The notes under the pieces: model-generated
The model's input: only the letters and a program-made list of their open reading frames with translations
Told to the model about the DNA's origin: nothing
The model's database searches: none
Shown here: one piece after another, positions 1 to 61,553 of the stretch
Position numbering within the stretch: the first letter of the stretch is position 1
How the letters are laid out: every line of letters starts with the position of its first letter
Position numbers and translations under genes: made by a program
Origin: Octopus vulgaris
Lineage: Eukaryota
NCBI GenBank assembly: GCA_951406725.2
Contig: OX597822.1
Location: 93,434,001-93,498,000, forward strand
Length of the DNA stretch: 64,000 nucleotides
Direction: 5' to 3'

Positions 1-398
1 AAGTGAAGAAAGGCTGTGCACTGAGTCAATCCCACTCACTAAGCAACAGCAGCCATAATCCGAAAAGAAGAACAAGTCAACATCATCGGTAACCACTGAG
101 CCGCAGGTTTTATGTCGGAGTTATCCCAGTTACCTGAGTTGCCTTCTTCTAGAAGGATGCCCTAACAAAGGCTAGGAGTCCTTCACTCCCAATGGTTTAA
201 CCGCGCGATCGGGTATTCAGTCCGATTATTTCTATGTCCCCGCGCATGATACACCCTTAAAACATTTATTAGATGGCCGTTGACTCTCAAGAGTTCCTCC
301 GCCCTTTGACGGGTTTTGTTTTTCATCCCGCAGGGTGTCCAATAAACAATAAACAACCTCATCATCAAGCAAGCTTGGTCGGGTCGTCGGCGACTAAA
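1..398. mobile_element. Non-LTR retrotransposon terminal/leader fragment abutting (CATA)n
   Basis: GC-richer unique sequence ending abruptly in (CATA)n. The minus strand carries GGGCATCCTTCTAGAAGAAGGCAACTC...AAAACC, resembling 5' leader motifs of RTE/R4-type LINEs. Orientation and clade uncertain. Confidence 0.45.
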
Positions 399-3757: not shown

Positions 3758-6243
3758 ACAGTACGGATTGAATTATTCATCCTTTGAATCGCTGAATACA
3801 AAACGTGGCTCGTGAGACCGCTATTTGGTTGATTTACCTAGGTCACCATCTCACCCATGTACGTCAATCCGTTACCCCATTTACGGCCGAGTGGACTGGA
3901 GCAACGAGAAATTAAGTGTTTTGTCCAAGAGCACAACTCATAGACGGTCCAGAAATTGAAACCACAATCTGTCGATCGTGAGTGCAATACCCTAACCGGT
4001 ACGCTACGCGTCTTCACAATGTATAGATATATTTAATTGTAGCTCAGCGTTATGTTACATAGCCAAATGCAGTGTTTACTTATAAGTCACTAAAATCCTT
4101 TCTAATATAGGCACAAGGCCTAAAATTTTGATGGGGAGGCGAAGGAGTAGTCGATTACATCGTCCCTCAGAATTTGACTACTGCTTATTTTATCGCCCCT
4201 GAAAGGATGAAGGGCAGATTTGGTCACAACGGAAATGTAATATAAGGTAGTGTTGTATGTTGTAATGTTAAGTCAGTGTGGTTATGCTTTAAGTGTGGCT
4301 GAAATGCTCAATTTATTTCTAGTTTCTGTATACAGACATAAGCATATATAGCTTTTCCACGTTATTTTTGTTATTCCCTCAGTCCCCTTCTTCCCGAAGA
4401 ACATTAGATAGTCCTTCCTTTAACATTTCCTCGCTAGTTTACTAAGTTTTAATGGTTATTTAAAATGGTTGGAATTCATGGAATCGGCAGTTCAAATCTC
4501 TCAAGTGTTTGATTATGATTTAGAGCAGGGATCGGCACAGTGATCACTATTGTCCCCACCCAACATGTGCAGTGCGTACGGAGGCCACATTTAGGATTTT
4601 GATAACAACTGATAAGATCCATTTTAATGTTGTCGTTGTGTTTTGGTTGCAACAAAAGTAGCACAAAAATAACAGAGAAGGTTTGGATATTTCACAAAGT
4701 TCGCTGCTTAAATAGAAATGATCTGAGTAAATATTCTGCAAAATACATAATATTTTAGATAAAATATAAACAAAGCAAAAAAAAAAAAAAAATTCCCAAT
4801 TCACTGATTATCTTAGAAACTATACGTGCTGCTGAAAAACCTCCGACAGTTTTGAAATCAGCATTGAGAATACTCCCCAAAGTAGAGTCATACTCATGTA
4901 ATATTCTACAGTTTGGTTGACTGGTTTGCTAAGTGGTCGATATTTTGGTTCTCTTGGCCCCATTTAGCAGTGTTCTATAACCAACAACCTTGTGATTTCA
5001 GGCAAGATAAAACTTAGGCGGTCTCGCAACTCACTGTACAGGCAGAAGACAGAACTTAAGCTTAGCAAACCACTTGATAATTCCCCTGTGTTTCAGTTGT
5101 TTATATATTTAAATTATTTACTCTTTTAGTATGAATGCTTTTAGCTAGAAACAAAATGTAAAGACACTCACCAGCTTAGAAAATTTAAAGAGAACTTACA
5201 TAACATTAAATTTTACTTCATTTAAATAAGAGTAACTTTTTGACGATGTAAAACTCTAAATTCCACCATATTACCAAAAACTGGGACTTTGCATTAAATT
5301 GTACGACATTCTTAAAAAATAGGGTCTATTAATTTTTCTCTGAGCCTGCCTTTAACTGTAGTTTGTATCGAGTCGTCGGAGGTCTAAACATAGTTTATTT
5401 TACGACACAATATGAAGAAATATGAAACGAGAGTTATCAGCTGCCTTCGCCAAACTTTCTACAATTATGCAAATGGAAACTAAACATAATAAAATTAATA
5501 TTCTGTAACAAAAATAAAAGAAAGAAAGCAACTGTAGTAATTGCTGTAGAGCAAACGGTAAACTGTAAGCAGAGAAAATTTCTCAACAATTACGAAATTT
5601 AAGCATCGAGCATTGATTTACTTTCTGCCAAAAAATCTGTTCTTCATCTCCCTAATGGTTAAAGAAAATCTCTTACAGGTCTCCGTGGGACGGCCAATCA
5701 CTCAAACCGTCATATAGCTGTAAACTGTTGTATTAAATAATGATCTGTAGGTGTACTTCGTAGGTATGGCGGTAGCCTTCTCAAAATACTTTGGTTGGTA
5801 ACTAAAAACTTAGAGAAATGATATTAGATTATTTCTATGTGGTTCTTTTTTTTTTGTTTTAGGTCTGGACATTTGGCGCAGACGATATAGTCCAGAATTA
5901 GACGAGCATATTGAAGTATCAGGATTCTGTTAAACGCGGAATTTCGCACAAAGGTTTCAAATCAGGCTTATGCTTAGAAGCATAAAGAATTTTTTTTTTA
6001 TGATGAATTGTTGTGTTCTACGATCAATGTCGTTCCACCTGTGACTATCCCGTCTTTTGTGCAAACAAAATTGTAAGGATTGTCCACTAGCAGGTCGAGA
6101 GACTATCCCGAAAATGGATGGACACATTTAATGGCGAATTTTGAACTCAGAACGCAGTGAGCTTTGATAAATGTCGCAAGCCATTCCACCCGATGTGCTA
6201 ACAAACTCTCCCACTTTCTGTTTTACACTCTATTAATTTATAA

Positions 6244-27029: not shown

Positions 27030-28228
27030 TACGGAAATTCAAAGAGCCCTGAAAGACATCCGAGACTGTCAGGCTCCAATGGGAGGTGTAACGCTTCTGT
27101 TTTCAGGTGATTTCAGGCAAACTCTTCCTGTCATTCCGAAAGGCACTGGAGCAGACGAAGTCCAAGCATGCCTAAAGTCCTCTACTCTGTGGCATCATGT
27201 TACAATCCTCAGTCTCACCACTAACATGAGAGCTCAGCTACACGGCTACAAAATGTCCACAAAGTTTGCACAGGACATTTTGACACTTGGTGAAGGCAAG
27301 ATGCCTCTCGATGCTGCAGGACAAATGGAAGTGTGGTCATTTTCCTCTGTTGCAAGATGCCTGTAGATGACCTAAAAAACAAAGTCTTTCCCAACTTCAC
27401 ACAAAACTACCAAAATCACAATTGGCTGTGTGAAAGAGCAATATTAGCTCCAAAAAACATCGCTGTTAACAAAATTAATCAACAGCTAATGCATTCTCTT
27501 TCCGGCACTATACACACTTACAAGTCTGTTGATACAATTCCAGATATAAATGAAGTTGTGAACTATCCTCCTGAATTTCTCAATTCACTGGAGCCTCCTG
27601 GACTACCTCCACACATATAGCACTTAAAGTTGGAACTCCTGTAATGCTACTCCGCAATCTGGAACCACCAAGACTTTGCAATGGAACACGACTGGTGATA
27701 AAGAAAATGATGTCACATGTTATCGAGGCGATCATTCTTTCTGGATGTGGAAAAGGTGATGACGTCTTTATTCCAAGAATTCCTCTTACTCCATCAGGAG
27801 CAGAAATTCCATTTACATTCAGAAGACTACAATTCCCCCTTTGTGTCAGCTTTGCCATGTCCATTAACAAATCTCAGGGTCAAACCCTCTCTGTAGCTTG
27901 TCTTCTCTTGAAAGAGCCCTGCTTCTCGCATGGGCAACTGTATGTTGGCTGCTCAAGAGTAGGAACCAAAAGAAACCTTTTTGTATATGCTCCACAAGGA
28001 AAAACAAAGAACATTGTTTACAACGAGGTGTTATAATCTCAACAGCCAGGAGATATATACATGATCCTTTTTTTTAACAAACTTCATGTACTTTCTTGTA
28101 TTTATATTAATATACATGTATGTGTGTGTGTGTGTGTGTGTGGGTGTGTGTGTGTATCCGTATATATAAACAGAAAAGTCTAATTCTTCAATTGAATGTA
28201 ACCGGGCAACGCCGGGTATCTCTGCTAG
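27030..28228 (+). mobile_element. Helitron 3' portion: Pif1-like helicase pseudogene plus 3' terminus
   Basis: GGVTLLFSGDFRQTLPVIP, AILAPKN, EFLNSL, MLLRNL..RLCNGTRL, RLQFP..FAMSINKSQGQTL and FSHGQLYV..SRV. Hairpin accgggcaacgccgggt, then CTAG|T at 28225-28228. Confidence 0.95.
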
Positions 28229-44254: not shown

Positions 44255-45079
44255 GCAAGATTTTTTATGTGAAGTCGTGTGTAGGGGAAACAGCAAGAAG
44301 CATAGGAGAGCGGGTAAATGGACATTGGAGACAACTCAAGGAAGGTAAAAGCTCGTCGATTCTGTACCAACACGCCGAACAGGAACACGGGGGATCAATC
44401 AACAACATAGAAATTAAAATATTGTCCACGCATAGAACAGATGCAACAATCAGACAAATTACAGAAGCTACACACATAATAGAAAATAAACCTAGCCTGA
44501 ATAGAAAACTAGAATGGAACAATAGCACACACCACAACATATGACGGTAGAGGATCCCGAAAACATACACAGATAAATAAACAAATAGAAATAAATAACT
44601 ATATATTTTTATTTATTTATTATTATTACTACTAGTATTGTTGTTATACATACATACATACATACAAGCATATGTAATGATAATAATAAAGGGATGTAAA
44701 CACATGAACAAAATAAGAATAAACAAAAACAACAACAAAAACAAATTACATGAACGTATATAAACAGAAGATACAAATATTACAGGCATCCCCCCACATA
44801 CACTAAATAAACATAGACCCACATAGAGATATAAGCATGCGCAAATGAAGACATACAATAGAAATACAAAATGACTGACGGTTAGTAAGGAGAGACACAA
44901 ATAAGAAAGAAGAAAACAAAGGACCACTGATGCGGTCACAGGAGTGTGACGAAAGAACTCTGGCCGAAATAAGATTAAGATTAATGTAAAAAATTAATAG
45001 CACTGAAGCAAAGTAACACCAAATATATAGTGCGTGTGATTTTATTGGCTAAACTGGCAAAATGACCATTCCGAAATAT

Positions 45080-45085
<6 letters not shown>
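44248..45085 (+). mobile_element. Penelope-like element 3' part: GIY-YIG endonuclease fragment plus pLTR
   Basis: VGETARSIGERVNGH...LYQH...H...IKIL......R.ITEA.HI...KPSLN is the PLE GIY-YIG signature. A hammerhead-like motif lies about 380 bp downstream. Confidence 0.9.
44922..44965 (+). ncRNA. Hammerhead-like motif with A9 to C change
   Basis: CCA-CUGAUGC-g-GUCACA-ggag-UGUGAC-GAA-AGAACU-C-UGG. Confidence 0.65.
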
Positions 45086-55126: not shown

Positions 55127-55267
55127 TGAGTGGCTGTGTGGTAAGTAGCTTGCTAACCAACCTCATGGTTCCGGGTTCAGTCCCACTGCGTGGCATCTTG
55201 GGCAAGTTTCTTCTGCTATAGCCCCGGGCCGACCAATGTCTTGTGAAAGAAGCCTGTCGTATATATG

Positions 55268-56004: not shown

Positions 56005-56470
56005 ATCTTCTTTTATCTTTTTATGACTGTGGCCACGCTGGGGCATAACCTTGACGGATTTAAGTTGAACAAATCGATACGAGAACTGTTTTGTTTAAAA
56101 ATCTGGTACTTATTCTATTGGTCACCTTTGCCGAACCGTAAAGTTACGGAGAAGCAAACAAACCAACAACGGTTGTCAAGCAGGCGGAGATCCAAGCACA
56201 AAGACAACAACACACTTCTATCTGTCTAGCTATCTATTTATCTATCTTTACACACACCACACACACGAACACACACGCACGCACACACACACACACACAG
56301 CGCACGCACTCGCGCGACAGATTTCTTTCAGTTTCGTCTGTCAAATCCACTTACAAAATCGACCCGCGGCTATTGTAGAAGACACTTACCCAAAGTGCTA
56401 CGTAGTGGGTCTGAACCCGAAACCATGTGGGTGGGAAGCAAGCTTCTTGCCACACAGCCACGCCTGCGCC
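56005..56470 (-). mobile_element. Family A SINE, older copy
   Basis: tgactgtggccacgctggggca...aagcaagcttcttgccacacagccacgcctgcgc. Confidence 0.8.
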
Positions 56471-56609: not shown

Positions 56610-57494
56610 CGTCCATCATCATCATCGTCATCCTCACAATCACTAGCTTCAGCATCACCACTATCACCGCCACCACTACTACTAACACCATCACCAACAC
56701 CACTATCACCATCATCAGCAACACCATCTGCCGAGGTCGACTTTGCCTTTCATCCTTTCGGGGTCGATAAATAAAGTACCAGTTTCCCACTGGGGTCGAT
56801 GTAATCGACTTAATATCCCTTTGTCTGTTTTTGTTTGTCCCCTCTATGTTTAGCCCCTTGTGGGCAGTAAAGAAATACATCATTACCACTGTCACCCGTT
56901 TTCATCATCGTTGTCACCACCATCACCACCACCACCATCACAACCATCATTACCACCACCACCATCACCATCATCATCAACATCAATAGCACCATCACTT
57001 TTATCATCGTACCTCTGTCGAACGACAGCGCCACCACTGGTATGTACTCCTACCATCATTATCATCATTGCTACCATCATCGACCAGCCCGTAATCACTA
57101 GCTTTTCCTCATCTCCATTAATAACGGCTGTCATCAACAATACTGTTGTTATCATCGCTGTTATCACTACCACATCCTCATCCACCACATCTTCCTCCTC
57201 CTCCTCAGTCACATCGTCGTCATCGCCGTCATCACCAACACCGACATCAACGTAATCACAACAACTGAAAACCACCTGCATTATTACCAACATCCACCAA
57301 AACTACCATTGTCATCATCATCATCATCGTCGTCGTCGTCATCATCATCATCATCATCATCAGCATCGTCTTCGTCGTCGTCGTCGTCGTCGTCATTACT
57401 TCCTGCATCGTCAACATCAACAAAATATCGACGTACCTCATCAACCATTCTTCTCTCCTACCATCGTCAAACCTTCCACACCATCACCATCCCT

Positions 57495-57730: not shown

Positions 57731-58169
57731 TTCCCATCTAAGACGGTTCACCATGAAATAAAAAAATAAAAGACCACAAACTAGATCCCTTTTGTGTTAC
57801 GGTTGTTGTTTGTGGGGTATTTTTCTTGCATGTCTACATACAACCCTGCATACACACCCTGCATATTCTCCCTGAACTGTAAATATATACTTATGTATGT
57901 ATGTATGTATGTATGTATGTATGTATGTATGTACGTATGTACGTATGTACGTATGTATGTATGTATGTATATGTGTGTGTATGCGTACGTCTTTGTGTGC
58001 TCTTCTCACCTCCCTCTCTTTATGTATATATACGGAAATGTATTTGCATAGTAAGTGACCTGATCTGAGATCGTGTGCTGAAACAAAAACAATTGCAGCG
58101 TGGAAGGTGTTTATAAGCCATTTAAAAATACACAAAAGCCGTTAGATTCACTTCAACATTTAAATTTAA

Positions 58170-58220
58170 TTTGTCAAAATATTTTCGTCGCTTTGAGGAC
58201 GCGACCTGTTCACTGACAAA
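58170..58220 (-). ncRNA. Type-I hammerhead ribozyme, G3-C8 core variant (intact copy)
   Basis: UUUGUCA-GUGAACA-g-GUCGC-guccucaaa-GCGAC-GAA-AAUAUU-U-UGACAAA. Confidence 0.8.
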
Positions 58221-58239
58221 ATTCCGTGCAACAAGGAAT

Positions 58240-58290
58240 TTTGTCAGTGAACAGGTCGCGGTCTCAAAGTGCCGAAAATATTTTGACAAA
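58240..58290 (+). ncRNA. Type-I hammerhead ribozyme, G3-C8 core variant (stem II mismatch)
   Basis: UUUGUCA-GUGAACA-g-GUCGC-ggucucaaa-GUGCC-GAA-AAUAUU-U-UGACAAA. Confidence 0.7.
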
Positions 58291-59111
58291 TTAAATTTAA
58301 ATGTTGAAGTGAATCTAACGGCTTTTGTGTATTTTTAAATGGCTTATAAACACCTTCCACGCTGCAATTGTTTATACACATGCACACACACACATATATA
58401 TATTATTACACACATGTCGATGCACAGTCCCTAGGGATTTTCCTAAAAATGTAAACACCACTATCACTATCATCACCCTCACCCTAACCATCTTCAATCT
58501 TTCCATCGCCTTCACTAAAACCACTACCACACCAACAACACCAACACAACCCCATCACTATCACACCATCATGTAGCTTACAATGTCTTTCAACATAACT
58601 ACAATATCTAGTCATACATTCATTATTTCTGCTTTCTCCTTCCATTTGTTCATCACAAACACATAGATGTGTGTGTGTGCGGCGCGAACACACACGCATT
58701 CACACGCATGCGCGGCCCCGCACACACACACGCAGTTACGCATAAGCGCATCATCCGACAGCGAACAATAATCAAATCTTACCACAAGTATTGGTTGTTG
58801 TAATAATTCCTCGAAATTCATGGTCTCCGCCCTGTTGATCTATCTATGGTGTCTCAGATGTTTTCTGAGCCCTATTTTGATTGTAAAGATTCCTCTTCAT
58901 TCTAAAAGATGGTTTCATATTGCAGACATGTTGCCCTCTCACACTTTTCTCTTTCAATTCAATCATTTCAAAGTTGCTGTTCTTTCGTGGTTGATGGCCC
59001 ACCAAAGTTTCCAGTCCTAGGAATTGCTTTCCCTGCGTAAGAAGGAAAAAGGGGTTAGTAAAAAAAGAAACGCCAATCTTATTGCTTTCAATTCGTTTTT
59101 CATGTCTTTCC

Positions 59112-61340: not shown

Positions 61341-61553
61341 GGCGGCGAGCTGGCAGAACCGTTTGCACGCCGGGTGAAATGCTTAACGGTATTTCGTCTG
61401 CCGCTACGTTCTGAGTTCAAATTCCGCCGAGGTCGACTTTGCCTTTCATCCTTTCGGGGTCGATAAATTAAGTACCAGTTACGCACTGGGGTCGATGTAA
61501 TCGACTTAATACCTATGTCTGTCCTGGTTTGTCCCTTCTATGTTTAGTCCCTT
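61341..61553 (+). mobile_element. Family B SINE
   Basis: ggcggcgagctggcagaa...gccgaggtcgactttgcctttcatcctttcggggtcgataaattaagtaccag. Confidence 0.9.

Follow-up and report, generated by a model that had tools for sequence, protein, structure and literature searches.

A head-to-head pair of Penelope-like element ends in Octopus vulgaris carrying a predicted natural G3-C8 hammerhead motif

A palindrome in the genome of Octopus vulgaris, at 58,087-58,373 of a 64-kb stretch of DNA (the window), raises the question of why two hammerhead-like motifs stand head to head at one locus, and whether a hammerhead core that reads GUGAACA, with both partners of the 3-8 pair exchanged, can be anything other than the remnant of a ribozyme. 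It is established for C3-G8 that the 3-8 pair holds the 2'-OH of position 8 at the cut. An earlier note on this DNA, made from its letters, read the palindrome as carrying two variant ribozymes spread by a Penelope-like element (PLE). In this study, we examined the two motifs, the element that carries them and its relatives in the same genome.

Read outward, both arms of the palindrome have the same parts, namely a stem I of UUUGUCA/UGACAAA with 7/7 pairs, the core G3-U4-G5-A6-A7-C8-A9, GAAA, a self-complementary AAUAUU and UUU. G3, C8 and U17 could be mapped in both arms, in agreement with the swapped core and the two cut positions first proposed (Table 1). Both motifs also contain an extra G between A9 and G10.1, which is absent from the earlier note. 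Its stem II, GUCGC/GCGAC, is correct for the left arm (5/5 pairs) but not for the right arm, which reads GUCGC/GUGCC; one position of this helix is a U·C mismatch and another a G·U wobble, so its mismatches represent damage and not covariation. Compared with the canonical consensus (C3 U4 G5 A6 N7 G8 A9 ... G12 A13 A14 A15 U16 H17), both arms have G3 and C8 in place of the literal C3 and G8. When variant cores are admitted, as for the minimal hammerheads of PLEs, the motif has a base pair between positions 3 and 8 (here G-C), U4 G5 A6, A9, G12 A13 A14, A15.1-U16.1 and H17, as well as a palindromic, unstable stem III (AAUAUU here, AAUU in the related family C and AAAGCUUU in the related family F). 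Stems I and II, G10.1-C11.1 and the extra base after A9 are present in the left arm and in the majority of the family, the right stem II being damaged. The fold z-scores are -2.43 for the left motif and -0.67 for the right one; neither monomer folds much better than its shuffles (5 of 200 shuffles were equally good for the left), and the AAUAUU duplex by itself contributes only -0.2 kcal/mol. A relaxed hammerhead descriptor found the left arm only, with 0 matches in 50 block-shuffled windows, and the Rfam hammerhead models gave no match in the window at the gathering score.

The palindrome itself, the sole copy within the window, was described earlier as 139-bp arms around a 9-nt loop. It is real but larger, as that reading had stopped at the first mismatch: the arms (58087-58228 and 58232-58373) are 142 nt each, with a 3-nt spacer and 96% complementarity, and the left arm continues beyond the palindrome into the 'tail' of the element. 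Five positions differ between the arms. None of them is in the core, as noted before, but the same note had placed all of them in stem or loop II, where only four lie; the fifth is near the centre, and the outer 102 nt downstream of stem II show no difference. The suggestion that the stem II mismatches are a sign of selection is not supported, given the broken right stem II and the fact that stem II is the most variable part of the motif across the family; this variability, in a helix that contains CpG, explains much of the clustering. A read-through transcript of 58028-58380 is predicted to fold as a single long hairpin of -233 kcal/mol. Any transcript of the palindrome would contain the antisense arm along with the sense motif and let the two pair, so that neither motif is likely to be active at this locus.

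Table 1. Positions in the window of the palindrome's parts and of a related hammerhead used for comparison
Feature	Position	Strand	Remarks
Left hammerhead motif	58170..58220	-	G3 58213, C8 58208; additional G at 58206; cleavage predicted after U17 58177; both stems, I and II, intact
Right hammerhead motif	58240..58290	+	G3 58247, C8 58252; cleavage predicted after U17 58283; damage to stem II at 58270 and 58272
Left arm, PLE pseudo-LTR end (5'-truncated) plus tail of about 56 nt	58031..58229	-	begins 16 nt upstream of G3
Tail, left arm only	58031..58086	-	between the family's two 3'-end clusters, +122..128 and +183..189 from G3
First 30 codons of the element's RT-endonuclease ORF	58031..58121	-	ATG 58121; start same as in the complete copy
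Head-to-head junction, 3-bp overlap TGC common to both arms	58227..58229	.	arms read against family copies
Right arm, pseudo-LTR end without tail	58227..58373	+	begins 20 nt upstream of G3
Family B hammerhead (comparison), C3-G8	44921..44965	+	core CUGAUGC at 44927-44933; behind endonuclease fragment 44272-44541

The motif belongs to a large family. With copy counts taken as exact 17-mer matches in the 2.8-Gb genome, a 17-mer over the G3-C8 core gave 7,916 matches (reversed control 0), and a 17-mer at the start of the open reading frame (ORF) described below gave 8,398 (control 1). A genomic family that preserves the GUGANCA/GAAA/stem architecture, which the earlier note had made a condition of its proposal, therefore exists, and its positions 3 and 8 have not decayed at random: 52 of the 59 copies picked by the ORF start have G3-C8. 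The family comprises two subfamilies with different loop II; members of both share the right arm's A-to-C change at stem II position 11.2 (loci L004, L012, L015, L019, L022, L026 and L033).

The parent protein, reached by walking upstream from longer copies, is a 1025-codon open frame with YVDD, a CX3CxxC linker (CQSNCAVC) and, at the C-terminus, a GIY-YIG domain (PF01541, 25.4 bits versus a cut-off of 22.6). Its reverse transcriptase (RT) motifs were read by eye; there was no Pfam RT match, the match to a solved RT structure is weak (E 0.036), and one homologue carries the label RT-domain protein. A complete copy, in which frame breaks are present (locus L392), consists of an inverted truncated copy, a pseudo-LTR, the ORF and a second pseudo-LTR, with the motif in both pseudo-LTRs on the same strand, at 4242 and 8503, 4,261 nt apart. 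G3 precedes the ORF start by about 105 nt, which places the motif in the 5' leader. A single ORF that joins RT to a C-terminal GIY-YIG, together with pseudo-LTRs, an inverted 5'-truncated copy and an optional tail, is the organization of an EN+ PLE, and the linkage of the motif to such an ORF bears out its proposed spread by a Penelope-like element. The linker conforms to CX2-5CxxC, by which Neptune and Nematis elements are defined (PMC8557442, in the part available). Judged by its sequence, the element is an EN+ Penelope-like element and, by its linker, of putative Neptune/Nematis type. It shares with the Neptune/Nematis EN+ PLEs (Craig et al. 2021, PMC8557442) the C-terminal GIY-YIG, the linker, partial tandems, the inverted 5'-truncated copy, a tail at one end and (TA)n targets, but its tail is about 56 nt instead of the 30-40 nt given in the accessible text of that paper. 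Since nearly all of the 246 matches to homologues of the parent protein come without DNA context, the motif was followed within the O. vulgaris genome only. A metagenome scan with the protein alignment gave two loci with ORF pieces that lack flanks, and the exact G3-C8 pattern had 0 matches in viral contigs.

Hammerheads in tandem are known from the animal non-LTR retrozymes (bioRxiv 10.64898/2026.07.22.740005; PMC7229834; both available in part). The window locus is an inverted pair and not a head-to-tail tandem; at locus L393, however, seven same-strand motifs stand 166-192 nt apart in a tandem array of the G3-C8 unit, which resembles these retrozymes. Two such retrozyme-like arrays (L393:8637-9715 and L394:5796-6367) lie beside an ORF start, and adjoining each of them is one G3·G8 unit.

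Evidence on the 3-8 pair also comes from the relatives of the window's family (family A). Family C, found with a G3-C8 pattern with shorter loops, has C at N7, a 7-nt loop II and AAUU as stem III; its flanks align with those of family A, and it is the older of the two. Between C and A there are differences at N7, in loop II and in the stem III palindrome (AAUU in C, AAUAUU in A), and one stem I pair differs in both of its bases; G3, C8 and the remaining core positions are the same. Family B is a sister element (protein 56% identical) that has C3-G8 at the same place and differs from family A by both-sided changes in stems I and II. A pattern with positions 3, 7, 8 and 9 left free gave 165 matches (control 0); of the 100 listed, 88 were analysed after removal of 12 family-A loop variants. 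Positions 3 and 8 are paired in 73 of the 88 (G-C 35, C-G 17, U·G 11, U-A 6, G·U 3, A-U 1), and the mutual information is 0.58 bits for 3-8 versus 0.26 for 3-7 and 0.09 for 3-9. As copies are not independent, the family-level pattern is what counts: with families assigned by eye, the majority state is G-C in A (8/8) and C (27/41), C-G in B (9/9) and E (6/7), U·G in D (10/20) and U-A in F (2/3). In a hand-picked alignment, 19 of 21 rows are paired at 3-8, and slid controls are far lower. In line with the compensatory change claimed before, positions 3 and 8 covary between related families (G-C, C-G, U-A and U·G).

A flank tree of 82 of the 88 rows (six with cut flanks were omitted) gives support to B+E+F (99/98), to D and to F. 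The tree is unrooted, fails to separate A from C and places D within A on a long branch, so we propose no order of events; as far as it shows, G3-C8 would represent one evolutionary event, and a chance double change at 3 and 8 is complementary about one third of the time. The upstream PLE protein was found by tblastn for families A, B and E only, family C is linked by flank similarity, and D and F have no protein link. The U·G majority of family D and the C9 of family B indicate that relatives of the element tolerate weak cores. One genome offers a natural 3-8 series (C-G, G-C, U-A and U·G, with A or C at 9) on a near-constant stem II for kinetics.

Several members of this series were observed in passing. 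The window itself contains, at 44272-45085 on the plus strand, a truncated family B PLE with an endonuclease end, a pseudo-LTR bearing a C3-G8, C9 hammerhead, and (TA)n flanks; older B copies have A9, so the A9-to-C change spread in an active lineage. The old family D (loci L265, L266, L268, L289, L308, L315 and others) has U3·G8 in 10 of 20 copies with U-A and C-G minorities, and its U3·G8 is possibly a wobble step between C-G and U-A. Family F (L280, L284, L324) combines U3-A8 and C9 with a stem III that is a perfect palindrome of 8 nt. A canonical CUGAUGA minimal hammerhead occurs in at least one other family of very high abundance (27,082 pattern matches genome-wide versus 7,841 for the control).

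Minimal hammerheads in PLE pseudo-LTRs have been described before (Cervera and de la Pena 2014, PMC4209133). The motif reported here is like them in being type I, in its pseudo-LTR location, in the extra base between 9 and 10.1, in G10.1-C11.1, in the palindromic stem III, in its thousands of dispersed copies and in the occurrence of opposite-strand pairs, there 100-700 bp apart; it is unlike them in having G3-C8 instead of C3-G8, and G as the extra base where their consensus has H. In the portion of that work available, the representative motifs of Fig. S3 start with CUGA or UUGA and none with GUGA, the only 3-8 covariant being U3-A8 in Schistosoma. U3-A8 is also the natural 3-8 covariation reported among core variants by Perreault et al. 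(2011, PMC3088659), the accessible part of which gives no G3-C8. In the available portions of PMC11167929, PMC8495972 and PMC3884650, G3-C8 occurs only as an engineered change, which partly rescues the hammerhead (PMC8495972, PMC11167929). In the PAc element, an anole Poseidon PLE, the hammerhead needs protein, and cutting, which is lost when either position is changed singly, is partly restored in the C3G/G8C double mutant (Frangieh et al. 2024, PMC11167929). This mutant has the same letters at 3 and 8 as the octopus motif, engineered there and natural and family-wide here; moreover, the motif here lies wholly upstream of the ORF, and the protein has a Zn-finger linker that Poseidon lacks. 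No natural G3-C8 hammerhead was found in a literature coverage that excluded the largest PLE hammerhead survey (Lünse 2017), other key hammerhead papers and bioRxiv supplements. A laboratory-made G3-C8 and the U3-A8 analogue are thus already published, and the octopus family is likely, from its sequences, the natural form of a variant so far seen only as a laboratory mutant. The expectation that CUGANGA-based searches miss it also held, as the descriptors in the available parts of PMC8557442 and PMC4209133 would not catch G3-C8; such searches would overlook whole families of thousands of copies each.

Cutting in vivo may be reflected in where the copies begin. Among 102 pieces, 36 have their 5' end at -29..-17 from G3, 59 contain the entire motif and 2 reach further upstream; 1 of the 102 begins within 2 nt of the predicted cut (+37). 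There is no peak of genomic 5' ends at the predicted cut among these pieces, and cutting has therefore left no clear trace; the 10 that start at +37..+46 lie in an AT-rich stretch, and several are explained by junction homology. The base before the -23 start is G in 15 of 24 copies, where the element itself has a pyrimidine, and among the genome-wide cases with G or A at this place, it is G in 90 of the 100 listed of 951 matches. Hundreds of copies genome-wide (e.g., L352-L391) begin with an untemplated G just before -23. From work on LINE-1, cap copying is known to give one extra G. The untemplated G is likely a cap signature marking the transcription start; in paired arms, the extra G may also be shared with the partner arm. 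From the starts upstream of the cut and the untemplated G, the usual insertion template is likely capped, uncut RNA. Such a template gives no sign of cutting, but it does not show that the motif is inactive.

The reading that we favor, with fair confidence, is that the locus consists of head-to-head PLE pseudo-LTR ends with a natural G3-C8 motif that is predicted to be slow and to cut as a dimer or with an element protein. The motif would fold as a minimal type-I hammerhead in which the G3-C8 pair is predicted to hold the position-8 2'-OH at the cut. Cutting would be slow and would take place as a dimer through AAUAUU or with the element protein, and a point against this reading is that the minimal PLE hammerheads published so far cut poorly (PMC4209133, in the part available). 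Transcription would start 23 nt upstream of G3 to give a capped RNA, and most insertions would be copied from uncut RNA. Selection acting on the master copies would keep the motif, the selected property being a fold for which the 3-8 pair is required. The change from C-G to G-C would have passed through a mismatched step, which could be survived if cutting is dispensable for one insertion round. If this reading is true, the Watson-Crick exchange so far missing joins the natural variants of the hammerhead core, and phylogeny lends support to the active fold's 3-8 pair. A more detailed version, which we put forward tentatively as somewhat short of an even case, is a hitherto undescribed G3-C8 hammerhead, natural and active, that is fixed in a PLE family numbering more than 8,000 copies, within a lineage using C-G, G-C, U-A and U·G, and that acts as a slow protein- or dimer-gated switch in a capped 5' leader, with insertions made from uncut RNA and the two strands primed at different internal sites.

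The most serious alternative is that the motif descends from a hammerhead but is dead or does not cut, with G3 and C8 fixed by drift in a master lineage and the structure kept in the 5' leader for protein binding or translation control. It would account for the many copies that start upstream of an intact cut site and span it, and it is in keeping with the finding that hammerhead mutants of the anole PLE insert normally in vitro, with no RNA ends at the cut site (PMC11167929, as far as available), and that Naiad PLEs thrive without hammerheads (PMC8557442, likewise). It would also make the mismatched step from C-G to G-C easier to understand, as G8C alone cuts the rate 100,000-fold (accessible part of PMC8495972). 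However, all six related families are paired at 3-8 in their majority state, and between C and A the only core change is at N7, a free position. In addition, U4-G5-A6, GAAA, U16.1-H17 and a self-complementary or closed stem III are kept in the six families, although the search patterns prescribed stem II and some core positions, whose conservation in families C-F is therefore partly built in. We consider a dead motif unlikely, though deserving of attention.

Conceivably, the copies have a sharp 5' boundary upstream of the motif because a splice acceptor lies there, and they derive from spliced RNA, as in the case of the Penelope intron, which ends at helix I. Just upstream are a CTAAC that resembles a branch point, a run of pyrimidines and CAG, and the intron of D. 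virilis ends at the 5' side of helix I (PMC4209133, in the part available). However, upstream of the single G no common sequence is seen in any of the 40 G-start copies fetched, and, simple repeats aside, the upstream kilobase of the element matches none of them, so that no spliced upstream exon appears among them. This explanation, which we regard as improbable, bears on the 5' end of the RNA and not on the G3-C8 pair.

As for the palindrome, the favored reading of joined pseudo-LTR ends is consistent with the way in which the family inserts. Insertions were sampled at 70 loci by the ORF-start 17-mer among the first 100 matches listed, and 64 sites were scored. The arrangement is head to head at 38 of the 64 sites, a proportion in which paired insertions are over-sampled because either arm can match. 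In 34 of the 38 pairs, one arm is tailed and the other tail-less, ending at +183..189 and +122..128 from G3, respectively. The window locus fits this pattern, with a tailed left arm, a right arm that ends at 58373 and a 3-bp overlap between them. The palindrome is an insertion by-product, namely two short PLE pseudo-LTR ends joined head to head. In vitro, the protein of the anole PAc element cuts the two strands and extends them, beginning at two internal sites between which the tail lies (PMC11167929, in its available part), and the AT-rich targets of PAc are a further likeness to the octopus element. By analogy, reverse transcription here would start at two internal sites early in the ORF, the palindrome would likely form when both DNA strands at one cut are extended, and both window arms may derive from one such event. 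These end statistics bear on two open PLE questions, the purpose of the hammerhead and the formation of inverted insertions, in that copies probably come mostly from uncut RNA and paired arms nearly always come from different start sites.

A two-ribozyme unit, in which two hammerheads cooperate, for example in divergent transcripts that cut as a dimer, is highly improbable. In its favor, the core is complete in both arms, 9 of the 38 sampled pairs have two complete motifs and the outer 102 nt are identical. Against it, the two motifs have opposite orientations and no single transcript contains both hammerheads, the read-through transcript is a long hairpin, the element's promoter sequence is absent between the arms, the right stem II is broken, and the arms of 35 sampled pairs show 131 differences in 2,324 positions, as expected from free decay, with the 5/142 of the window locus within the range of the other pairs. 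Homogenisation between arms was also considered as a general process and rejected, as 5 positions are shared and 131 differ in the 35 pairs.

Dispersed short SINE-like repeats lie around the locus, at 56727-56859 and 61423-61553 and at 55130-55232 and 56359-56461. Elsewhere in the window, open frames at 2266-2778 on the minus strand and 27575-28036 on the plus strand resemble, by eye, what we take to be fragments of a Helitron replication initiator and a PIF1-type helicase.
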